Below the pieces are notes generated by a model. The model made no database searches. It saw only the letters and a program-made list of their open reading frames with translations, and had not been told where the DNA came from. The position numbers and the translations under genes are program-made. This document shows positions 25,200 to 37,474 of a DNA stretch of 64,000 nt, piece by piece (within the stretch, counting starts at the first letter, position 1; every line of letters begins with the position of its first letter). The stretch is from positions 5,184,001 through 5,248,000 of the forward strand of contig CAWIAD010000002.1 in NCBI GenBank assembly GCA_963833985.1. Direction: 5' to 3'. The stretch comes from an uncultured Planctomycetaceae bacterium (GTDB lineage: Bacteria > Planctomycetota > Planctomycetia > Isosphaerales > Isosphaeraceae).

Positions 25200-25781
25200 A
25201 TGTTGAAGCCCTTGACGTTGAGCCTCAGCCTTGCCGTCGCCCTTGGGTTTTGCAGCGTGAGCATGGCAGGCGGTCATGACGGTTGTACCACCTGTGGTCT
25301 GGCCTCCCCGCAGGGCGGCCCGATGGCCAGTGCTCAGGGTCCGATCGCAACGGGTTGCGAGACCCCCTGCGCGCCCAAGAAGCACCACTTCGCCGATTTC
25401 TGCTGCAAGCTGAAGTCGGCTCTTCATCCCCCGGTCTGCTACGAGTGGGTCCTGAAGAAGAAGAAGATGTGGGGCCACCACAACAACTCCGGCTGTGAGA
25501 CCTGCGGCGCCGCTGGTGCTCCGGTCTATGCGACCGGCCAGGTTGCTCCCTCCGGCCAGGGCGGCTACGCCGCTCCGTCGGGCCAGGGTGGCTATGCCGC
25601 TCCTCAGGCCGCGCCGATCTACGGTGCTGGCCAGCACGCCTACCAGACGATGCGTCCTTCCACGACGATCGCGTCGGTTCCCGCCGAGATGACCCCGGCT
25701 GTCGCTGGCGACGAAGCTCCCCCGGCCCCGGAAGTTCGCGAGACCAGCGGCCTGCTGCTGCCGACCCCCTCGGGCAACTGA
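25200..25781 (+). CDS. Secreted Cys/Gly/Pro-rich planctomycete protein with short repeats
   Basis: AAGGAG RBS; signal peptide; CTTCG, CETPC, CETCG; APSGQGGYA tandem repeat. Confidence 0.75.
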   Translation: MLKPLTLSLSLAVALGFCSVSMAGGHDGCTTCGLASPQGGPMASAQGPIATGCETPCAPKKHHFADFCCKLKSALHPPVCYEWVLKKKKMWGHHNNSGCETCGAAGAPVYATGQVAPSGQGGYAAPSGQGGYAAPQAAPIYGAGQHAYQTMRPSTTIASVPAEMTPAVAGDEAPPAPEVRETSGLLLPTPSGN

Positions 25782-26019: not shown

Positions 26020-26395
26020 TCGCTTTGGGTGAACACCGCTGCCCCCTGCCGCCGGATGCGGTTGACAGATGAGCCCCCTTATGCGTAACTCTTGCACCGC
26101 AAGAAGCGCCGGACCATGCACCCAGGGATGGGCATGCCGGAGTGGACCAGGATCGACGCGTGTGCCGGCCTCGTCGCCGTGACGGGCCCGAATGGGCGCA
26201 TCCTCGTCTCTGGGGGCGACGCTCGGGTCGCACACAGGGTCGTCCTTTCCTGGCCGTTCCCAGTCGCCGTCCCCGTGTGTGCATCGGTCTCCCGGTGACC
26301 ACGCACACAACTGGCTCGGCCACCGCGCTCAGGGTCCTGGTGAGCTGCCCTCCCTGAGGCAGGTGGAGCGGAGGCGGACGCCCGGAGGATGGTTG

Positions 26396-28071
26396 ATGGC
26401 GAGATTTGCCTGGTTGACGTCCGGTCCAGGCCTCAACAGTCTTGGCCCGCGCCTGGAGAGCTTGCGCCGGCGGGCGGCAGCGCGCAGTCCGGCTGTCCGC
26501 TGGGCGCGGCCGCCTTGTGTACCGTGGCTCTGGGACTGGCGGTGTACCTGAGCAGCGTGGCTCTTTCCACGGGGTCCAGCGTCTATCTTGGCTCCGGGCG
26601 GCGGTTCAGCCCGGAGGACCTCAGCAAGATCTCGCGCGGACTCGATCACCAGCGCCTGACCTACCGCATCGACGACCAGAGGCGGGTGGCCGTGGCAGCG
26701 GAGCAGCTCGAGCTGGCCGGTACCGCAATCAGCAAGCTCGAGCTCGGACCGAGGCCGCCGGGAGAGATTCGCGACGACCAGTCGGCCGCGTCAAGCGTCT
26801 GGGAATCGATCCACGACAAGGAGCTTCGCGAGTTCCAGGGCCGGGAGAAGATCCTCGAGTCCCTGATTGGCGACCTGCCCGGGATCGTCGGCTCGTTCGT
26901 CTGGATCAACCGGACAAAACCGCGATGGGGCCTTCAGCAGGCCGTCAAGCCGTCGGCGTTTGTCCGGCTGGAGACCGAGGGCGATCGCCAGTTGCCCTTC
27001 CGCACCGTGCAGACGCTGAGCACCATCCTGACCCGCACCGAACCGGGTCTCACCGCTGATGCGGTCACGGTCGTGGATCGCCGGGGACATACGTACCTCG
27101 ATGCTGGCAACCCGGCCCTGAGCGCGCTCTCGCATAACCGGGCGCGTGAGGAAGAGCTGAGCCAGCAGATCCTCGAGCAGCTCGACTGGATTGGCGGCGT
27201 GCGCGTCTCTGTCCAGCTTGCCGAGACGACGCGGCCGGGAACGAGCACGGTGGAGACCAGGCCCGCGGAACGGCGCCCTTCACCCGATGGGAAACCGGTT
27301 CAGAGCGCCCTTGAGCCGCCCCGCGGAGAACCGCCGTCACGGTGGAAGCCGGCCTCGGGAAGCGGACCGGAGACCAGAACTCTGGCCCCCGCCGTGGCGG
27401 TGAACCGGCCGCTGACACTCGACCCGGAGTTTCCGGCACCGGTGCCAGCACCACCGTGTGGGGCCGGCGTCACCTCGGCGACGTCGCAGCCGGCCGCGGT
27501 CCCTGCGGCAGACACTGGCCCGCCGACGATACCTCGACCCGGCGCCCGCGAGCTCACCGGCGACACCGGCGTCGTCTGGGTGCGCGTGCCGCGCAGCTAT
27601 TATTACAAGGCCGGCATCGCACTGAACCGCAGGGAACCTTCTCTGGACGAGTTTCAGAAGCTGGTCGCTCGCACCGAGGAGCAGATCAGGACCGGCATCG
27701 GGCTGGTGGTCAACCTGTCCGGGCCGCTGTCCTGGACCGCCAAGATCGACATGATCTCCGACGACGTCCCGCTGGACGCTCCGGCCGCAGTGGCGTCCCC
27801 CAGGGCAAGCCGGCGCGTCTCGATGGAATGGGCCGTCGCCGGAGCGCTCGGGGCCGTGGCAGTGGTGATGGCGGCCATCGGATCGTGGGTCCTGAGCACC
27901 CGGAGGCCGGCGCTCGCACCGGCAGCGGCCCCGCGCAACCTGCGTTTCCACGACGCATCCGCCTTCTCTCCGGGCCCCTCGGAACGGCTTCGGGAATTCG
28001 TCCGCCGGAACCCCGAGTCGGCCGTCAGCGTGCTCGAGCGCTGGACGAGCCAGGGAGGCACAGCCTCATGA
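26396..28071 (+). CDS. fliF: FliF/YscJ-family MS-ring protein (probable start 26396 with a frameshift near 26503; alternative in-frame ATG at 26389)
   Basis: TM1; RBM-like LESLIGDLPGI..KPSAFVRL..PGLTADAVTVVDRRG; EEELSQQI..VRVSV; TM2; C-terminal ERLREFVRRNPESAVSVLERW (FliG-binding). Confidence 0.8.
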
Positions 28072-28688
28072 TCCGTACAACCTCTTCGGCGGCAGATGCG
28101 AAGCACGACCCGGCTGCCCCGGCGGCACTCCAGACGCCGGGCTCGCCGGTCCCGCCTCCGCATGACGATGGCCCGCCCGGCGCGACCATCGCCCCCTTGC
28201 GCAAGGCGGCGATTGTGCTCGTGAGCCTGGACCAGTCGCTGGCGTCCCAGTTGCTGGCACAGCTCGACCGCTCATCGGTGGAGGCGGTCACCTGGGAGAT
28301 CGCCCGGCTGGAGCGGATTGATCCGCAGGAGCAGTCGGCCGTCCTGGATGAGTTCCTGGGGCTGGGCCTGCGCCGGCTCTGCTTCGTCTTTGACGACCTG
28401 CTCCGCCTGGGCAACCCGGACATTCGCGGGGCCTATCATCAGGAAGACATCACCACCTGGGCGCTGGCTCTTGCCGGCGCGGCCCCGCTGGTGCGGGCCA
28501 AGGTGCTGCGCTCGCTCGACGCCGCCGACTCCGCGGCCCTGGAGCGTTGCCTGGAGGGCCTTGGTCCGTTCCGGCTCTCCGACGCCGAGGCCGCCCAGGC
28601 CGAGATCGCCGAGCGATTTCGCCGCCTTCACGACCGGGGCCTGATCGCCCTGCCCGACCCGAGCGGGCGTGAAGCCGTGCTGGTCTGA
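28068..28688 (+). CDS. fliG: Shortened FliG (N- and C-domains fused, middle domain absent), 206 aa
   Basis: LRKAAIVLVSL..EIARL..VLDEF (FliG-N) is joined directly to FVFDDLLRL..ALALAGA..LGPFRLSDAEAAQAEI (FliG-C); ATGA overlap with fliF. Confidence 0.85.
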   Translation: MIRTTSSAADAKHDPAAPAALQTPGSPVPPPHDDGPPGATIAPLRKAAIVLVSLDQSLASQLLAQLDRSSVEAVTWEIARLERIDPQEQSAVLDEFLGLGLRRLCFVFDDLLRLGNPDIRGAYHQEDITTWALALAGAAPLVRAKVLRSLDAADSAALERCLEGLGPFRLSDAEAAQAEIAERFRRLHDRGLIALPDPSGREAVLV

Positions 28689-28746
28689 TGCGGCGAGCGG
28701 CAAGAACCATCCATCGGCTGCTCGACGCGACGCCGGAGACCCGGAC

Positions 28747-29229
28747 ATGAAGACCACTTGCCGCATGCAAGCTCGAAGCCTGCCGCTGTGCTCCGCTCTG
28801 CTGGCGGCTCTGCTGGCGGGCGTGCCGGCCTCCGCGGAACAGGAGCCTTTGCGCGTACCAGGGCCGTCGAGCCGGCTCGTCGGGCGCGACGGGTCCGCCT
28901 CGTCCCGGGGAACGGCTCCCCCCGCAAGCAGCGCGACGGGATGGTGGCTCGGCTCGGCGGGAATCACCCTCGTTCTGGCGGTCTGCGGGGCCCTCTGCGT
29001 GGCGGCGCGGAGGTACTTGCCACAGGCGCCTTCCGGATCGCTACGGGTCGTCGGCCGCGTCAGCCTGTCGCCCCGGCATTCCATTTACATGGTGCGGGCC
29101 GGTGAGCGGGTCTGGCTCATTGGCACCGGCAGCCAGGGTGCGCCCACCCTGCTGGGCGAGCTGACCGCGGAGGCCGCCACGCCCCGCGCGGCGACCGGGC
29201 TCGACGTCCGTCTGGGAGAGGAAGAATGA
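28747..29229 (+). CDS. fliO: Flagellar export chaperone FliO
   Basis: TM followed by LRVVGRVSLSPRHSIYMVRAGERVWLIG...LLGEL; lies directly upstream of fliP. Confidence 0.85.
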   Translation: MKTTCRMQARSLPLCSALLAALLAGVPASAEQEPLRVPGPSSRLVGRDGSASSRGTAPPASSATGWWLGSAGITLVLAVCGALCVAARRYLPQAPSGSLRVVGRVSLSPRHSIYMVRAGERVWLIGTGSQGAPTLLGELTAEAATPRAATGLDVRLGEEE

Positions 29230-30146
29230 AGCGCTCCCGGCACGACAGACTGCCTCGAATCGCGGCCGCCCTGCTATGGCCACTGCTCTTGCTGGCGCTG
29301 GGAGCAGCGCCCTCCGGCGAGGCCGCGGCCCCGGCGGGCGCCCACCGCGAAGCAGTCGCCCTGCTCCCGGGCGCGGCCTTCGGCTCCGGCGCCGGCTCGG
29401 ATGCAAGCGTCTTCCGCGCGGGGGACGCTCCAGCACGGGACCTCGCGCCTGGCGGCAAGCCGCCCATTCCCGACCCGCGCGACGCCATGCGCGTCATGCC
29501 GACGATGCTCCTCTATGGGCTGATCTGGCTGGCCCCGATGGCGGCGATGATGGTCACCGCGTTCGTGCGGATCAACATCGTTCTGGTGCTCTTGCGGCAG
29601 GCCCTGGGCAGCCCGCAGATCCCGGGGAACCAGGTGCTCATGGTGCTGTCGCTGCTGCTGACCGCCCTGGTAATGCGGCCAGTGGGCGAGCAAGTCTACA
29701 CGCGAGCGATCGTTCCGTACATGGCGGGGCAGGCCACTCCGGCGCAGGCCTGGTCCGCGGGCTCAACTCCGCTCAAGACCTTCATGGTCGACCAGATCAT
29801 CAGGACCAACCACCAGGACCATCTCTGGGCGCTTTACCGTTACGCGGTGCCCTACAGTCCGGGCCAGGTTGATCCTCAGTATGCCGACGAGTTCCCTTTC
29901 CGGGTGGTGGCGCCGGCTTACATGCTCAGCGAGCTCACCACAGCGCTGGTGATCGGCTTTTATATTTACCTGCCGTTTCTGGTGATCGACCTCGTGGTCT
30001 CGGCGGTGCTGGCGGCCATGGGCTTGTACATGCTGCCGCCGTCGCTCGTGGCTATCCCGATCAAGCTGATGGCCTTCGTGCTGGCCGACGGCTGGCTGCT
30101 GGTAGCGTCGAAGCTGCTCTCAACCTTCGCCGTCGGTGGGACCTAG
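29226..30146 (+). CDS. fliP: Type III/flagellar export gate protein FliP
   Basis: TAFVRINIVLVLLRQALGSPQIPGNQVL, PAYMLSELTTA..GFYIYLPFLVIDLVV, PIKLMAFVLADGW. Confidence 0.95.
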   Translation: MKRSRHDRLPRIAAALLWPLLLLALGAAPSGEAAAPAGAHREAVALLPGAAFGSGAGSDASVFRAGDAPARDLAPGGKPPIPDPRDAMRVMPTMLLYGLIWLAPMAAMMVTAFVRINIVLVLLRQALGSPQIPGNQVLMVLSLLLTALVMRPVGEQVYTRAIVPYMAGQATPAQAWSAGSTPLKTFMVDQIIRTNHQDHLWALYRYAVPYSPGQVDPQYADEFPFRVVAPAYMLSELTTALVIGFYIYLPFLVIDLVVSAVLAAMGLYMLPPSLVAIPIKLMAFVLADGWLLVASKLLSTFAVGGT

Positions 30147-30180
30147 GACAGCCAGGAAAGGAAGGAGGGCCGCCCTGGAC

Positions 30181-30441
30181 ATGAATCATGCGATCGACTG
30201 GTCTCGCGAAGCCCTGCGGATGGCGCTGTTTCTTGGCGGTCCGCTGCTGGCTGTCGCCCTGCTTGCGGGGCTGGTGATCAACATCCTGCAAACCGTCACC
30301 CAGTTGCATGAGCCGGTGGTGGGGCTTGTCCCGCGGCTGGTGGCCGTGCTGCTGGTCTTGCTGGCGATCCTTCCCTGGCTGATCGGCCGCTGGGTCAGCT
30401 TCACCGTCGAGATGATCGGCTCGATTCCCGATTTGTTATGA
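30181..30441 (+). CDS. fliQ: Export gate protein FliQ
   Basis: 86 aa; PLLAVALLAGLVINILQTVTQLHEP..VPRLV..PW. Confidence 0.93.
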   Translation: MNHAIDWSREALRMALFLGGPLLAVALLAGLVINILQTVTQLHEPVVGLVPRLVAVLLVLLAILPWLIGRWVSFTVEMIGSIPDLL

Positions 30442-30451
30442 AACACAGGCA

Positions 30452-31222
30452 ATGGCCGTTGACGTGGATTCCATCAACTCCATCTGGATTGAAGCCCATG
30501 CTCCGGTCTGGGCCCTGGTGATCGCGCGTGTGGGCGCGGCCTGCATGACGGCGCCCGTGACCGCGGCTCCGGGGCTCGGCTGGCCCATGCGCCTTGTGCT
30601 TTCCCTCATGCTGGGCGTGGTGGTGATTCCGGTGCTGGAGCCCTCGATCGGGGCGGTTCCGGGCGGACCGATACTGCTCTGGCTGTGCGTGATGGAGCTG
30701 CTCGCGGGGGGGTTGCTGGGATTGACGGCGGGCCTCATCGTGGCGGCCGCGCGGCAGGCCGGCGACCTCGTTGCGGCCCAGGCGGGGCTCTCGGCCTCGA
30801 CGCTGTTCGATCCCGAGACTGGCGAGGAGCTCACGCCCCTGGGCCACCTCTACGGCCTGATCGCGCTGGCCGTGTTCCTGGCCATGGACGGTCCGCTGGT
30901 GCTGGTGGGAACCGTGGTGGAGAGCTACCGCTCCGTTCCTGCGGGCGGCTTTCGGCTTGACGCGAACACGGCGTCGGAGCTCTTCGCCCACCTCGGCGGC
31001 GCGCTGGCCCTTTCGCTCCGCGCCGCCGCGCCCGTCGCCGTCTCGCTGGTCGCGGCCGGAATCGTGCTCGGCTGGATTGGTCGGCTGGCGCCGGCGGTGC
31101 CTCTTCTGGCCCTGTCGCTCCCCGTCCGATCGCTGCTGGGGATCCTCCTTGTCCTTCTGAGCCTGACCACATTGGCCGCGACGTTTGCCCAGGCGTGGTC
31201 CGGCTGGCCCTGGGGACCATGA
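30452..31222 (+). CDS. fliR: Export gate protein FliR
   Basis: ARVGA..APV, ELLAGGLLG, AGDLVAAQAGL..FDP, DGP, LRAAAP, GRLAP..LSLP. Confidence 0.9.
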   Translation: MAVDVDSINSIWIEAHAPVWALVIARVGAACMTAPVTAAPGLGWPMRLVLSLMLGVVVIPVLEPSIGAVPGGPILLWLCVMELLAGGLLGLTAGLIVAAARQAGDLVAAQAGLSASTLFDPETGEELTPLGHLYGLIALAVFLAMDGPLVLVGTVVESYRSVPAGGFRLDANTASELFAHLGGALALSLRAAAPVAVSLVAAGIVLGWIGRLAPAVPLLALSLPVRSLLGILLVLLSLTTLAATFAQAWSGWPWGP

Positions 31223-31254
31223 GAACCGTGGTCGATCACAACTGAGGCCGTCTC

Positions 31255-32292
31255 ATGTCCGAGGATCGAACTCAGCCCGCCTCGAAGCGCCGCTTGCAGA
31301 TGGCACGCGAGCAGGGCCAGGTGCCGCACAGTCCCGAGCTCACGGCCGCCGGCGGCTGGCTGGTTGCGCTGCTGGTGCTGGGTTTCTGGGGCCAGGACCT
31401 GATGGCGGGCCTGGTCGGCCTGGTGCGGCAATCGGCCGGCCCGGAGCGCGCGATCCTGTCCGATGCCGACTCGCTGGTGACGCACGTGCACGCGGCCGCA
31501 CTGGCGGTTGCGGTGCCACTGGGCCTCGTCGGGATAGGATTCGCGGCCGGAGCGCTGGCCACCCACCAGATGCAGGTCCGCGGGCTCTGGGCCGTGGGAC
31601 TGGTCGCTCCCGATTTCAGCCGACTCTGGGCCGTGGGCCGGGGCGCTGGATCGAGCGCAGGAGTCGAGCGATTTGCCTGGGCGGCGGTCAAGGCCGTGGT
31701 GCTCGTGGGTGTTTCCTGCTGGGTAATGAGCGCGGAATGGACCGCGATCCAGCGGCTTGGGTCCTTGAAGTTCCCCGCCCTGGCGATTGCGGCAGGTCGT
31801 CTACTGATCCGGCCGGTTCAGGTGCTCGGGGGAGCGATGCTGGTTCTGGGCCTGTGCGACTTCGGCCTGCGCCACTTCCGTTACGAGGCGATGCTGCGGA
31901 CGACGCCGGAAGAGCAGCGTGAGGACCTGAGGGTGATGGAGGGCGATCCTTCCCTGCGAGCCAGGCGCAGGCGCATGGCCCGGGCCTGGCGGGGCGACGC
32001 GCCGGAATTGCTTGCCGGGGCCAGCCTGGTTCTCATCGGCAAGGACGGTCTGACCGTGGTCCTGGCCGGCGGGCCCCCACCGCGGCGCGTGAGCGTCCGG
32101 CATGTGGCCCAGGGAACGACCGGCCAGGGCCTGCGCCGCTCGGCGATCTCCACCCGGCTACCGCAGGTGGATGCCGCCGAACTGGCGCGGGGCGTGGCAC
32201 GGCACGTCGCGACCCAGGGCGCTCTTGCCTCGAACTTGCCGGCGGAACTTCAAAGCGAGCTGGCCAAGGTCTGGCCGGCCCGGGAATCTTGA
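31255..32292 (+). CDS. flhB: FlhB/EscU-family export switch protein, divergent (no NPTH)
   Basis: MSEDRTQPASKRRLQMAREQGQVPHSPEL N-terminus; 4 TMs; LRTTPEEQREDLRVMEGDP linker; C-domain ELARG..LPAEL. Confidence 0.88.
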   Translation: MSEDRTQPASKRRLQMAREQGQVPHSPELTAAGGWLVALLVLGFWGQDLMAGLVGLVRQSAGPERAILSDADSLVTHVHAAALAVAVPLGLVGIGFAAGALATHQMQVRGLWAVGLVAPDFSRLWAVGRGAGSSAGVERFAWAAVKAVVLVGVSCWVMSAEWTAIQRLGSLKFPALAIAAGRLLIRPVQVLGGAMLVLGLCDFGLRHFRYEAMLRTTPEEQREDLRVMEGDPSLRARRRRMARAWRGDAPELLAGASLVLIGKDGLTVVLAGGPPPRRVSVRHVAQGTTGQGLRRSAISTRLPQVDAAELARGVARHVATQGALASNLPAELQSELAKVWPARES

Positions 32293-32678
32293 CCTCCGCA
32301 GTTAAAGAAAGCATTGAGCGCGAGACGCGAGATCCGCGACCAAAAGACAAATAGAGCGAGTACCGGGGCGATTGCGGGGGCCATATCGGCTCAATTAAAC
32401 TGCCCACGAACGCCGCATTCGCTCTGGACAGTGGCGGACCTCGGCGGTAGATTTCCCGCACACATCAGCCGAGAGCCAGCTCTGGCTTCCCTTGATCAAT
32501 ATTCACCAACCCGGCGCGGGCCGGTGTTTCGCTGGACGGTCTTCGCGAAGAGTCTCGGGAGCGCGGTTCCAGGCGACGGCGAGGTCGCCGGCGGTTCCGG
32601 CCTGTCGACCGGGTGCTACGGCCTTGCGAAACCGACCGGCCGCCGTACGTGGATTTCAAAGGCCTGTGGAGGACGCGG

Positions 32679-34925
32679 ATGCCTGGCACGACGTCGAGTT
32701 CACCGGCCTCGGGATGGAGCCAGGCCCTGGGATTGGCCCTGCCGGTCGTGATCATCGGCGCGATCCTCGTGTTCGTGATTCCCATCCCGCCCGTGCTGCT
32801 CGACGTCCTGCTCTCGGCCAACCTGACGCTGGCGGTGGTGGTGCTGCTCACCACCCTGGCGATCCGCACGCCGCAGGAATTCAGCGCCTTCCCGACGATT
32901 CTCCTGACCACGACCCTGACACGGCTGGTGCTCAACGTGGCGACGACGCGTCTGGTGCTCACTCATGGTGGGGATGACGGGCTAGACGCTGCCGGCGGCG
33001 TGATCCGCTCGTTCGGTGAATTCGTGGCGGGCGACCAGGTGCTCGTGGGCGTGATCCTGTTCTCGATCCTCGTGGTGATCCAGTTCGTGGTGATCACGCG
33101 CGGGGCGACCCGGATCAGCGAGGTGGCGGCGCGGTTCATGCTCGACGGTCTGCCCGGCCGGCAGATGGCCATCGACGCCGACCTGCATGCCGGACTCATC
33201 GACCAGCATGAGGCGCACAAGCGGCGCGACGAGGTTTATCGCCAGGCCGACTTCTTCGGCGCCATGGACGGTGCCGGCAAGTTCGTCCGCGGCGATGCCA
33301 TCGCCGGTGTCGTGATCCTGATGGTGAACATCTCGGGCGGATTGTTCCTGGGGATCGTGAACCACCAGATGAGCCTGGGCGAGGCGGTCAATGTCTTCAC
33401 CAAGCTGACCATTGGGGACGGCCTGGTGAGCCAGGTGCCAGCCTTCCTGATCTCACTGGCGGCGGGCCTGATCGTGACCCGCTCGTCGTCGTCGACCGAC
33501 CTGGGCCATGACGTGGTCAGCCAGCTCTTCAGCAGGCGGGGCGTGATGGGAACGGCCGCGGCCTTCCTCGGTTTGCTCCTGTTCACGCCGCTTCCCAAGC
33601 TGCCGCTCATGGTGCTTGCGGGGGGGCTGGCGACCGCGGCACTCTGGCTGCGGACGAATCCGGACGAGACCGCGACACAGGAACCGCACACACACCCTGC
33701 CCCGGCGCGGCAGCGCGAGCGGCGAACGGGTGACGGAGGCGGAAACGCAGCGCGAAGGGAGAATGCCGGAGCGACGCGGGTGGCTGAGCGTGCCACGTTG
33801 GTCCCCAAGGAAAGCTCCAGCATCGCCGGTCCTAACTCCGAGGGCATGGACGATCTCTTGCACGTCGATCCGCTGGAGCTGGAGATCGGGTTCCGGCTCA
33901 TCGGCCTGGCCGATCCGACGCGTGGAGGAGACCTGCTGGAGCGGCTGCGCACGGTCCGGCAACAGGTGGCTCGCGAGCTCGGTCTGATCGTCCCGCAGGT
34001 GCGGATTCATGATCAGATCAGCCTTGCGCCCAACGATTACCGGGTCAAGATCCGGGGGACGGTCGTCGGTCAGGGAACGGCCTACACCGGCCGGCTACTC
34101 GCGATTCCGCCGGCGGGGATGGTGTCACGGCCCGACGGCCGCGACGGGGTCGACCCGGTCACCGGCCTGCCGGCGGTCTGGATTCACGCGGACGGCCGCG
34201 AAGTCGCCGAGCTGGCGGGCTGCCAGATCCTTGAGGCGTCGGCCGTGGTGGCCGGACATTTCGGTGAGATCGTCCGCAACCACGCCGACGAACTCTTGAC
34301 GCGTGAGCAGATCGAGCGGCTGCTCGACCGCGTGAAAACCTCGGCGCCCACCCTGGCCGCCGAGGTGGTGCCGGCCCTGCTCCGCCCCGGAGAGCTACAG
34401 CGCGTGCTCCAGAACCTGCTCCGCGAGCGCGTGAGCATCCGCGACCTGGAAACCATTCTCGAAGCCCTGGCGGTCCATGCCGGCCGGACCAAGGACATCG
34501 ACGTGCTCACCGAGCACGCGCGTCAGAGCGTGGCCCGGCAGATCACCGAGAGCTACCGTGGCGGTGACGGCCGGCTGCGTGTGGTGACGTTGTCGCGGGC
34601 GCTTGACGCCCGGCTCACGGCAGCGGGCAGCCAGACCGACGTCCGACCGACCGAGGCACTGGGCGATGAGACTGCCCGGAGCATCGTCCGCGCCGTGGCG
34701 TACGCGGTGGGCAACCTGATCGAGGCCGGCCTGGCGCCCTTGATCCTGACATCGACGCCCGCCCGGGCCGTGCTCAAGGACCTGACGCGGGCCGACCTGC
34801 CCCGGCTGGTCGTGCTCAGCCAGCGGGAGATCCCGCGCGACACGCCGGTCGAGGTGCTGGGAACCGTGCTCGAGGAAGAGCCGGAAAGCGTGACCACCTT
34901 CTCCACCACCGAGGCCATGGCCTGA
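32679..34925 (+). CDS. flhA: Export apparatus protein FlhA
   Basis: FSAFPTILL..RLVLNVATTR, RISEVAARFMLDGLPGRQMAIDADL, DFFGAMDGAGKFVRGDA, TIGDGLVSQVP, LLRERVSIRDL. Confidence 0.97.
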   Translation: MPGTTSSSPASGWSQALGLALPVVIIGAILVFVIPIPPVLLDVLLSANLTLAVVVLLTTLAIRTPQEFSAFPTILLTTTLTRLVLNVATTRLVLTHGGDDGLDAAGGVIRSFGEFVAGDQVLVGVILFSILVVIQFVVITRGATRISEVAARFMLDGLPGRQMAIDADLHAGLIDQHEAHKRRDEVYRQADFFGAMDGAGKFVRGDAIAGVVILMVNISGGLFLGIVNHQMSLGEAVNVFTKLTIGDGLVSQVPAFLISLAAGLIVTRSSSSTDLGHDVVSQLFSRRGVMGTAAAFLGLLLFTPLPKLPLMVLAGGLATAALWLRTNPDETATQEPHTHPAPARQRERRTGDGGGNAARRENAGATRVAERATLVPKESSSIAGPNSEGMDDLLHVDPLELEIGFRLIGLADPTRGGDLLERLRTVRQQVARELGLIVPQVRIHDQISLAPNDYRVKIRGTVVGQGTAYTGRLLAIPPAGMVSRPDGRDGVDPVTGLPAVWIHADGREVAELAGCQILEASAVVAGHFGEIVRNHADELLTREQIERLLDRVKTSAPTLAAEVVPALLRPGELQRVLQNLLRERVSIRDLETILEALAVHAGRTKDIDVLTEHARQSVARQITESYRGGDGRLRVVTLSRALDARLTAAGSQTDVRPTEALGDETARSIVRAVAYAVGNLIEAGLAPLILTSTPARAVLKDLTRADLPRLVVLSQREIPRDTPVEVLGTVLEEEPESVTTFSTTEAMA

Positions 34926-34949
34926 GCCATGAAACCAGAGAGTCCGAGC

Positions 34950-36094
34950 ATGGGAGCAAGAACCTACAGGGCCAGAACCATGAAAGAGGCGCTGGCGCGG
35001 GTGCGCCGGGACCTCGGCGGCGACGCCGTCATCCTGGCCTCGCGTGAGGTGCGCAGGCGGAGACTCTTCGGGCTCGGCGCAGGAGCTGATCGAGGTGACT
35101 GCCTCTTCCACCATGCCCGCGGACCTGCCGTCCCTGCTGGGTCCGGAAGTCGCCGGACCGGCGCGACTCGCTCGGTTCCACGCTCTCGGCCGGTGCCCAG
35201 GCGCGGTTTGGAACACAGCTCAGCCAGCTTCATGCCATGGTGGAATCGCTGAGCCGGCAAGGCAGAATTGACCATCTGCTGCCGGACCTTCCCGGCGACC
35301 TGGTTCCGACGTACGCCCGGCTGGTCGAGGCGGATGTCCCGGAAGCGCTGGCCCGCCGGCTGGTCCGGTACGTGGCCGAGGGACTGGAGGATAGCCCGCA
35401 AGGCAACCGGCCGTCCATCGACCGGGCGCTCTGCGAGGCGGTCGAGCAATGCATCGCGATCGCGCCGCCGATCCGCGCGGTCGTGGGAACCCGGCGGATG
35501 GTGGCCCTGGTGGGGCCGACCGGGGTGGGCAAGACGACCACGGTGGCCAAGCTGGCGGCCAACTTCAAGCTCGTCCATGGTTTGCGGGTGGGCCTGGTCA
35601 CCGTGGATACGTACCGGATCGCCGCGGTGGAGCAACTGAAGACCTACGCCGAGATCATCGACCTGCCGCTGGCCGTGGCCAACGATCCAGGCCAGATGCA
35701 GCAGGCGGTGGATGAGCTGGGCGCGGTGGACATGGTCTTCATCGACACCACGGGGAGGAGCCCCCGCGACGAGATCAAGATCCGCGAACTGGCCGACTTC
35801 ATGGCACAGGCGCGGCCGGACGAGGTCCACCTGGTGCTCAGCGCGGGGGCTGCGGAGCGCACGCTCCGCTCGGCCATCGAGCGCTTCGCCGCCGTCAGGG
35901 CCGACCGCCTGATCTTGACCAAGCTTGACGAGGCTGAAGGCCTGGGAGCGATCCTGGGCGTACTGGGCCAGATGGATCGTCCGGTCAGCTACCTGACCAC
36001 GGGCCAGGCCGTGCCGGAAGACATCGAGCCGGCGGACCGCAAGCGGCTGGCTCGACTGATCCTCGGAATGGAGGCGATCGGTTGCGAACCCTGA
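34950..36094 (+). CDS. flhF: SRP-family GTPase FlhF (two apparent frameshifts near 35080 and 35160-35200)
   Basis: MGARTYRARTMKEALARVRRDLGGDAVILASR B-domain; GPTGVGKTTT, DTYRIAA, DTTGRS, TKLDE, TTGQAVPED. Confidence 0.93.
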
Positions 36095-36148
36095 TTTGTA
36101 CGAGGGGCCCGAAGCGCGGCCGGACAGGCCGGGAGGGGAGGTGGCACG

Positions 36149-36388
36149 ATGTCCGACCAGGCGGACAGTCTGCGGCAGCTCGTCCGGGCCCAGCGCCAGT
36201 GGCGTGAGCTCGCCCTGCAAGAGCAGTCCGCGGCACTCGCGTCCGGACCGTTCGCGAAGTCCGCAATGCCGCAACTGCGGACCGCCGGGCATGACCGGCC
36301 GTCCGGTCCCGGCCACGCGGTCGGCCAGTTCGTGGGGCGGGCGGTGCGCTGGGCCGTGGGCCGCCGGGGCGTTCGGAAATGTTCTTGA
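36149..36388 (+). CDS. Mini-FlhG-like peptide (DQAxxLR activator helix plus amphipathic C-terminal helix, no ATPase domain)
   Basis: GGAGG RBS; MSDQADSLRQLV; occupies the canonical flhG position between flhF and fliA; C-terminal VGQFVGRAVRWAVGRR. Confidence 0.7.
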   Translation: MSDQADSLRQLVRAQRQWRELALQEQSAALASGPFAKSAMPQLRTAGHDRPSGPGHAVGQFVGRAVRWAVGRRGVRKCS

Positions 36389-36476
36389 TGGTTCGTGGCG
36401 TGAAACGGACCGTCACACAGGAGAAAGGAGAATCGGCATGGAAGTCTCGATTTTCGGGTTGGCGTGAGAGTGCTGC

Positions 36477-36505
36477 TCAAGCCGGTTGGTCGGGTTGTCC
36501 GATAT
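36477..36505 (+). promoter_or_regulatory. Possible sigma28-type promoter upstream of fliA
   Basis: TCAA-N17-TCCGATAT compared with the TAAA-N15/16-GCCGATAW consensus; spacer slightly long. Confidence 0.3.
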
Positions 36506-36697
36506 TCAATCAGGATCAAGTTCCTTGAACGGCGGGAGGTCAGAGGGCGGGCAAGCCACGGGCCGGGGCACCGGCGTCGCGGCCACCCAGAAATGGCGAC
36601 GCAGCACTGAGTGTTTCGCAACCACGTCGTGATCGTCGCTGGCCTGCCCTTGACACATGGATGTGGGTCCTTCCGCTCAGGCGACACGGAGGTCAGG

Positions 36698-37474
36698 ATG
36701 TCAACCAAGGTGGATGTGGATGTAGCCGAACTCTGGCGTGAGTTCAAGGAACACCCCACCACGGAATTACGGAACCAACTGGTCGAGCGCTACTTGCCTC
36801 TGGTCAAGTACAACGCCGAACGGATCTGGCAGCGGCTGCCCGAGGGGGTCGATCTGGACGATCTGATCTCCGCAGGGGTGTTTGGGTTGATGGACGCCAT
36901 CGATGCGTTCGACCTCGGCCGCGGCGTCAAGTTCGAGACCTATTGTGTTCCGCGGATTCGCGGCGCCATGCTCGATGAGCTGCGCACTATGGACTGGGTT
37001 CCGCGCCTGGTCCGCTCCAAGGCCACCAAGATGGAGGAGGCGCGCAAGGAGCTGGAAGCGCGCCATGGCCGCCCGCCCACCGATGCCGAGCTCGCCGCGC
37101 AGCTCGGTCTGCCCATGGAAGAATATGAGAAGATGGCGCTCGACTCCAACGCGGTCGGGCTGATCAGCCTGAACAAGAAGTGGTACGAGACCGACAGCTA
37201 CAAGGATGTCCGCGAAATCGACATCCTCGAGGATAAGAAAGGGGAAGACCCCACCCGCCGGCTCCAGCGCAAAGACCTGATGCGCATGGTCACCAAGGGG
37301 TTGAACCGCAATGAGCGGCTCATCATTATTCTTTACTATTATGAAGAGTTGACGATGAAGGAGATCGGCGCCACGCTGGACCTCAGCGAGTCGCGGGTTT
37401 CCCAGATGCACTCCTCGATCATTCAGCGGCTGCAATCTCAGCTCTCGACCCGGCGGCCCGAGTTCGGCACCTGA
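36698..37474 (+). CDS. fliA: FliA/WhiG-family RNA polymerase sigma factor
   Basis: RNQLVERYLPLVK, DDLISAGVFGLMDAIDAFD..RGVKFETY..RIRGAMLDELR..DWVPR, LYYYEELTMKEIG..LDLSESRVSQMH. Confidence 0.96.
   Translation: MSTKVDVDVAELWREFKEHPTTELRNQLVERYLPLVKYNAERIWQRLPEGVDLDDLISAGVFGLMDAIDAFDLGRGVKFETYCVPRIRGAMLDELRTMDWVPRLVRSKATKMEEARKELEARHGRPPTDAELAAQLGLPMEEYEKMALDSNAVGLISLNKKWYETDSYKDVREIDILEDKKGEDPTRRLQRKDLMRMVTKGLNRNERLIIILYYYEELTMKEIGATLDLSESRVSQMHSSIIQRLQSQLSTRRPEFGT

Follow-up and report, generated by a model that had tools for sequence, protein, structure and literature searches.

Organization of the gene cluster

The window (the whole 64,000-nt stretch of DNA analyzed, from an uncultured Planctomycetaceae bacterium) contains a flagellar-type gene cluster in the order fliF-fliG-fliO-fliP-fliQ-fliR-flhB-flhA-flhF-mini-flhG-fliA (positions 26389-37474), in which mini-flhG is a short ORF located directly 3' of flhF and followed downstream by fliA. 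The host is a member of the Isosphaeraceae, and the closest named relatives of the FliA encoded here are Isosphaeraceae. The features of the cluster are as follows.

26389..28071 (+): fliF, divergent
28068..28688 (+): fliG, short (206 aa), with N- and C-terminal domains and without the middle domain
28669..31222 (+): fliO, fliP, fliQ, and fliR
31255..32292 (+): flhB without the NPTH cleavage motif
32613..34925 (+): flhA
34950..36094 (+): flhF, SRP-type GTPase; NG part open at 35237-36094, G1-G5 intact
36137..36142 (+): Shine-Dalgarno-like GGAGGT, 6 nt 5' of the mini-flhG ATG
36149..36388 (+): mini-flhG ORF, 79 codons (79 aa); same slot in 11 of 11 genomes of the genus
36149..36208 (+): activator (enhancer) helix with DQAxxLR, residues 1-20; predicted helix, pN/pS 0.09-0.12
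36209..36316 (+): linker of variable length, putative site of the lost MinD-type core; mostly coil, pN/pS 0.66-0.90
36317..36364 (+): C-terminal basic amphipathic helix (predicted), FlhG-tail homolog by profile, putative membrane-targeting sequence
36422..36467 (+): Shine-Dalgarno-like word and 9-codon ORF (ORF 36438-36467), which begins 38 nt 5' of the promoter-like box
36476..36505 (+): sigma-28-like promoter box TCAAG-N15-17-CCGAT, 5' of fliA; found in 89 of 108 family loci
36698..37474 (+): fliA (FliA/WhiG sigma factor), TIGR02479 above cut-off

The export gate proteins FliP, FliQ, FliR, FlhA, and FlhB are all encoded in the window. Upstream of fliF, an ORF at 25200-25781 has a signal-peptide-like start and a Cys/His/Lys-rich middle; it is matched in 18 fetched loci and has no hit in Pfam. 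The flhF gene matches PF00448, and its best NCBIfam model is FlhF, with the open NG part scoring just below the cut-off. Two frame changes occur near its 5' end (34950-35237). Because frame changes are frequent in the few-contig genomes of the survey set (and absent in most others), and because two contigs about 96% alike carry two extra bases at each of these sites, the two changes are likely assembly errors; this frame check used one DNA run with a small share, and the contigs lack most of the mini-flhG ORF.

The translation of mini-flhG has the N-terminus MSDQADSLRQLV and contains VGQFVGRAVRWAVGRR, followed by six more residues. It confirms the 79-aa ORF with a strong ribosome-binding site that an earlier note on this DNA had placed in the flhG slot, and a Shine-Dalgarno-like word precedes 28 of the 29 mini-flhG ORFs found in the family. 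The deletion of the ATPase domain claimed in that note is also borne out. Only 604 nt separate the flhF stop (36094) from the fliA start (36698), such that there is no space for the 270-aa core of FlhG. The ORF has no match among Pfam and NCBIfam families, a MinD-type core with a deviant Walker A is absent, and neither tblastn nor a profile of full-length planctomycete FlhG cores detects a core in the flhF-fliA interval. A full flhG elsewhere in the host genome was considered and is ruled out by the same core profile, which finds only distant ParA/Mrp-level matches (best E 3e-19, compared with 8e-91 for a true FlhG locus).

AlphaFold2, run on an alignment of 26 mini-FlhG sequences, predicts a helix at residues 3-31 (pLDDT 84-90 across residues 1-20), a middle part that is mostly coil (pLDDT about 50), and a second helix at 58-71 of low confidence (pLDDT <60). 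A PDB search with the peptide returned a chance match only (E 10), and the ESM Atlas gave no match at >=0.9. Since the tail is homologous to that of FlhG (see below) and helices are predicted at both ends, mini-flhG is, by homology and predicted structure, an internal deletion that unites the two ends of FlhG without the ATPase core. The earlier expectation that annotation pipelines would miss such an ORF is not upheld. Eight of 10 mini-FlhG proteins looked up are present in the protein collection, among them records from Paludisphaera borealis, P. mucosa, P. soli, strain SH-PL62, and Aquisphaera giovannonii, whose mini-FlhG (QEH35761.1) is 59 aa long. Where these entries carry a name, it is "hypothetical" or "uncharacterized," so pipelines call the ORF without recognizing it.

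The region before fliA contains the TCAAG-N15-17-CCGAT box, which resembles the sigma-28 consensus. A genome-wide scan for this box found seven sites and no clear regulon, and a scan for sigma-70 promoters and terminators found nothing above chance. The strong Shine-Dalgarno-like word and 9-codon ORF recur at all 11 genus loci, at two of nine from g63, and at 11 of 12 from the metagenomes. This ORF has a pN/pS of 0.6-0.7 and overlaps a DNA motif that is also present in relatives without the ORF; it may represent regulatory translation or a by-product of a promoter element. In four Pirellulales-type loci (L047, L055, L086, and L089), a small hydrophobic ORF of about 85 aa lies between the promoter-like box and fliA, and flhG is absent from the interval.

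Distribution and repeated origin of mini-flhG

A FliA search of 121 Isosphaeraceae genomes matched 112. About 13 kb upstream of fliA was taken for 107 genomes and the window, four having been skipped for too little upstream sequence, and one of these 108 loci (G042) is too short, leaving 107 informative. The mini class, defined as short DQAxxLR ORFs of 59-98 aa without a core (G007 was assigned by hand), comprises 29 loci; 72 others have a full FlhG core, some of them frameshifted in error-prone assemblies, and six have neither. The minis are found in all 11 scored genomes of g1 (the genus of the window), six of nine in g63, three of three in both g32 and g56, and single genomes of g30, g37, g47, g49, g54, and g59. 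The other three g63 genomes have a degenerate flhG remnant. A metagenome scan returned 12 loci, all of which are minis, with flhF motifs upstream in the 11 that have enough sequence. The conservation in relatives that had been named beforehand as a check is thus observed in 11 of 11 genus genomes and 12 of 12 metagenome loci. Outside the family, 39 flhF loci were fetched and 36 were scorable: 30 encode an FlhG of 202-357 aa that contains DQA, six have no flhG, and none has a mini-flhG. A profile search for minis, limited to proteins of 32-172 aa, had only planctomycetes among its named matches.

Frame errors near mini-flhG in the assembly of the window might point to an artifact in which a full flhG was deleted by mis-assembly, an objection that the earlier note had itself raised. 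However, independent assemblies carry the same short form (29 genomes and 12 metagenome loci), and mini-FlhG sequences exactly match database entries from named species of Aquisphaera and Paludisphaera, which rules out such a deletion and reduces the chance of an artifact to a negligible level.

In a tree of seven concatenated cluster proteins, which keeps 99 of 113 loci, the g49 and g32 minis each have a full-length sister (support 0.99). An AU test on a 40-taxon subset rejects a single clade of all minis (p 6e-29) as well as clades of the g32+g47+g49+g54 and g32+g49 minis; a g1+g63+g30+g56 clade is not rejected (p 0.12). The constrained trees were built by FastTree under LG+G4, and these are trees of cluster genes, not a species tree. 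Based on these patterns, flhG apparently shrank to the mini form several times in Isosphaeraceae, with at least three and perhaps five or six origins in a count in which g59 could not be placed. One candidate for an independent origin, G061, was dropped; its assembly has six frame changes in three genes.

Selection on the activator helix, linker, and tail

The 12 helix codons from Asp3 have a pN/pS of 0.12 in g1 (11 genomes), 0.11 in g63, and 0.25 when all 29 minis are pooled, compared with 0.24 for the corresponding codons of 51 full FlhG genes; all pN/pS values here derive from pairwise counts, which are not independent and involve no tree model. As controls, the other reading frames in g1 give 1.7-2.3 and fliA gives 0.04. 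Synonymous differences among minis reach 0.5-0.8 per site. Among 14 distinct genus-type ORFs, pN/pS is 0.09 for the helix, 0.90 for the linker, and 0.61 for the tail, and a set of five to seven genomes gives 0.66 for the linker and 0.68 for the tail. Amino acid identity among 27 genus-type proteins, which were gathered by a profile search that possibly favors intact tails, is 0.97, 0.47, and 0.74 for the helix, linker, and tail, respectively. The D, Q, A, L, and R of DQAxxLR are invariant in 26 aligned minis, and the motif is kept in 29 of 35 core-less family loci, which is the fair count because the mini class was itself defined by the motif. Judged by these codon comparisons, purifying selection acts on the activator helix (pN/pS about 0.1), the linker evolves almost neutrally, and constraint on the tail is weak. 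In the g1+g63 clade, constraint runs past DQAxxLR to residue 20, and Trp18 is present in 16 of 17 minis; among the full-length FlhG proteins inspected by eye, this Trp was seen in one only (G041).

These values also bear on the possibility that mini-flhG is what remains of a decaying flhG, has no function as a protein, and is translated, if at all, just to spare fliA from polarity. The near-neutral linker, the lack of a flagellum in the family, and the series from full to mini, degenerate, and absent flhG would fit such decay. Yet the typical pseudogene signs (pN/pS near 1 and loss of start signals) are not found for the helix, the linker alone being near neutral, and the codon-specific helix constraint is maintained across synonymous differences of 0.5-0.8 per site. 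Moreover, a separate promoter-like box precedes fliA in 89 of 108 loci, and the presence of the peptide is coupled to the FlhF motifs. A functionless remnant is largely refuted by pN/pS and is very improbable.

The full-length FlhG proteins of the family end in a conserved helix (consensus RRPGFFAALAARWALS). The profile of this FlhG tail matches the mini tail in the window with p=0.004 against 1000 shuffles, and both other frames are negative. Twelve of the 29 minis, spread over five genera, have in-frame matches with p<=0.05 (seven in g1, two in g32, and one each in g47, g49, and g59), and the other 17 lack a significant in-frame match, including all three minis of g56, all six of g63, and those of g30 and g54. 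Two further g1 minis match in a shifted frame only, and their assemblies have other frame changes. The mini-FlhG tail is, on this profile evidence, related by descent to the C-terminal helix of full-length FlhG, and it appears expendable in g56, g63, g30, and g54.

The membrane-tethered tail claimed in the earlier note is therefore upheld in its homology but not in strong constraint, nor across all genera. The claimed basic amphipathic helix is predicted at residues 58-71 with low confidence, but its hydrophobic moment (0.74) is not beyond that of shuffled sequences (p 0.08). If mini-FlhG activates FlhF, the tail would fairly likely act as a membrane anchor in the genus of the window. Alternatively, the peptide may be a soluble activator of FlhF, with the tail a fading leftover or a mere stabilizer of the peptide. 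The tail pN/pS (0.61-0.68) is near that of the linker (0.66-0.90), and its central part reaches 0.97 in five close genomes. Also consistent with a soluble peptide are the lack of a tail match in g56, g63, g30, and g54, where the helix and FlhF motifs are intact, and the loss of the tail in two genus-type proteins. In addition, FlhG is described in the available text of PMC12826062 as binding membranes as a dimer, such that the tail of a monomer may be too weak. Nevertheless, the tail is in frame in five genera that include separate origins, 34 of the 36 genus-type proteins in the database retain its motif even though indels alter their linkers, and its R, W, and A are invariant in the 27 aligned genus-type proteins. 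A soluble activator is rather unlikely in light of these findings.

Loss of FlhG partners

No flagellin was found in any of the 74 family genomes that are at least 85% complete, whereas four of 14 controls were positive in the same search. This absence agrees with the accessible part of PMC5352709, in which described Isosphaeraceae have no motile swarmers and few flagellar genes. Rod/hook proteins and FliH were found in none of four family genomes tested (one of which has a full FlhG) and FliI had no match over the cut-off in the same four, the single outgroup genome being positive. A search with PF20560 (MotA_N) gave no match in the family, nor in the flagellated outgroup. The NPTH motif is missing from FlhB in 48 of 48 scored loci. 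Counted from its first conserved motif, FliG measures 161-163 aa at each of the 31 scored loci, whether these encode a full or a mini FlhG. The missing FliG partner domain reported for the window thus corresponds to a lost middle domain that is absent family-wide, also where FlhG is full-length.

A single SpoA-domain ORF, for which SctQ is the best model, is present in 61 of 74 family genomes, and the host of the window also keeps a divergent FliM/SctQ-like protein outside the cluster; the coordinates of the ORF are as follows.

L223:5534-6850 (-): lone SpoA-domain protein, about 400-450 aa
G000:C2 about 3115530-3116850: lone SpoA-domain protein, about 400-450 aa

Weak FliM hits (middle domain) in six of the 74 genomes fall in this ORF, such that a complete absence of FliM, which had been considered, is rejected. 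The protein is possibly a FliM-FliN-type fusion. An EIDAL-like motif is present in none of 19 FliM/SctQ-like proteins of the family, from genomes with full and mini FlhG alike. The Walker A motif reads GKGGVGTSN in all 51 complete FlhG of the family (e.g., L159:1174-2088), and its Thr, which is also common to the FlhG of most class relatives, stands at the position of the P-loop Lys. Because this Thr occurs in the family and in many class relatives, the ATPase activity of planctomycete FlhG may be weak or lost. Since the losses hold in genomes with full and mini FlhG alike, the loss of partners would have preceded the core deletions, and the weakening of the ATPase probably did too.

Coupling of the peptide to FlhF

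FlhF retains every one of its motifs G1-G5 in 59 of 61 scorable genomes with full FlhG and in 28 of 28 with mini-FlhG, compared with none of five without the peptide (G017, G078, G110, G111, and G113; three independent lineages or events, with G078 read from four motifs). A further genome without the peptide, G043, has no flhF match. Outside the family, four of six flhF loci that lack an adjacent flhG keep all FlhF motifs, so loss of the peptide need not degrade FlhF, and within the family G068 has a degenerate helix motif next to a nearly intact FlhF. As the FlhF motifs decay within the family only where the helix is lost, this pattern indicates, at the level of motif conservation, that an FlhF GTPase cycle is still live in a family without flagella. 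Candidate pseudo-GTPases with altered G2/G3/G5 are found in L143, L141, and L165 (g63), L205 (G078), and L206 (G017), all with a degenerate or missing FlhG peptide. In L324 (G136), flhF is on a separate stretch from flhG-fliA, so the two genes are separable.

Taken together, mini-FlhG is, with good probability, a translated stand-alone GTPase-activating peptide for FlhF. In the available text of PMC12826062, the glutamine of DQAxxLR acts as a co-catalytic residue in the FlhF homodimer, which it drives to the monomer, and a 23-residue FlhG peptide is bound to FlhF in the crystal structure 3SYN (PMC7226244, as far as accessible). An ATPase-dead K31A FlhG of Vibrio still stimulates FlhF, according to the accessible part of bioRxiv 2022.03.19.484964. 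The same source describes the motif as dispensable for negative flagellar control at matched protein levels. This finding, as well as the constraint to residue 20 and Trp18 in 16 of 17 minis of the g1+g63 clade, may favor a helix that binds FlhF or another protein in a mainly non-catalytic role (dimer capping, or an adaptor through the Trp18 extension). Such a role is improbable, given that the co-catalytic Gln is invariant and that G2/G3 of FlhF decay where the peptide is lost.

Proposed mechanism and comparison with known systems

The further proposal that this FlhF-activating peptide is held at the membrane by its tail in the genus of the window is only slightly favored. The ancestor of the family would have lost flagellin, the rod, FliH/FliI, the FliG middle domain, and the EIDAL end of FliM. 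With its partners gone, the FlhG core would then have been deleted in several lineages, and we propose that it was deleted because of their loss. The activator helix would have stayed because FlhF must still cycle from GTP dimer to monomer, and FlhF presumably places the remaining FliF-FliG-FliOPQR-FlhBA gate. The core-less peptide would be a constitutive activator without ATP-dependent timing, and in g1, g32, g47, g49, and g59 its tail would enrich it at the membrane.

Mini-FlhG resembles FlhG/FleN/YlxH in that its gene lies directly 3' of flhF and in having an N-terminal DQAxxLR helix and a predicted C-terminal amphipathic helix of apparent common descent, but it lacks the SIMIBI ATPase core, is 59-98 aa long compared with about 300, and occurs in hosts without flagellin. 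Because this core is absent, the peptide would neither dimerize in an ATP-dependent manner nor present a core surface to FliM/FliY or FlrA/FleQ. FlhG is described in the accessible portion of PMC11236974 as binding the FliM N-terminus and FlrA through a shared site; binding of the FliM/FliY N-terminus would not extend to mini-FlhG, in which the core is absent and whose family has an EIDAL-like motif in none of 19 proteins. Given that the defining ATPase core is missing, mini-flhG is not filed as FlhG; it is better described, by sequence, as a putative new variant of the known FlhF-FlhG switch, likened to the activator arm of FlhG.

The closest structural parallel considered is the 23-residue peptide of Bacillus subtilis FlhG on the FlhF NG homodimer (PDB 3SYN, as described in part), in which the activator helix is likewise isolated, and the FlhF of the window matches the 3SYN FlhF sequence with E 8e-38. 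However, the 3SYN peptide is an experimental truncation, whereas mini-flhG is a natural gene under selection, often with the tail joined to the helix. The SRP RNA acting on Ffh-FtsY (PMC12826062, available text) is similarly a small activator that works in trans and contributes a co-catalytic group to the dimer of an SRP-type GTPase; unlike this RNA, mini-FlhG is a protein derived from FlhG, and its proposed target is a homodimer. As for the gate, Lysobacter enzymogenes keeps FliOPQR-FlhBA, possibly co-opted, without flagella (PMC7688988, accessible part), and the nanotube CORE reuses the flagellar gate without flagella (PMC6456723, accessible part). In the Lysobacter description FliI and FlgD are kept, whereas in Isosphaeraceae FliI, FliH, and the rod were not found in four of four genomes tested and FlhB lacks NPTH. 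Isosphaeraceae, unlike the Lysobacter system as described there, keep FliF, a short FliG, FlhF, FlhG or its mini form, and FliA.

The literature searched, with subscription papers outside its scope, describes neither a core-less FlhG of natural origin nor this cluster in Isosphaeraceae. The string "planctomy" is absent from the main text of PMC12826062, PMC6456723, and PMC12403147, although the genome tables of the latter two may list planctomycetes. In the available text of a 2025 review (PMC12826062), FlhF-FlhG is described as a pair of full-length NTPases that counts and places flagella, and the understanding of FlhF as incomplete.

If the proposed role is correct, mini-FlhG would be the first natural stand-alone GTPase-activating protein of an SRP-type GTPase. 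Evolution would have carried out the domain dissection repeatedly, with the ATPase dispensable and the activator helix not, leaving a minimal two-component system that is testable with synthetic peptide and cultured strains, as identical proteins are recorded for both Aquisphaera giovannonii and Paludisphaera borealis. The finding also puts a name to a group of small proteins now labeled "hypothetical" and draws attention to an export gate conserved in planctomycetes. More tentatively, and with somewhat less than even confidence, Isosphaeraceae may run an ATPase-less, flagellum-derived membrane machine (FliF, FliG without the middle domain, FliOPQR, an uncleavable FlhB, FlhA, and a FliM/SctQ-like ring protein) that is placed by FlhF, the activator of which was repeatedly cut to a membrane-anchored peptide. 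Such a machine, if real, would separate the core job of FlhF from flagellum counting.
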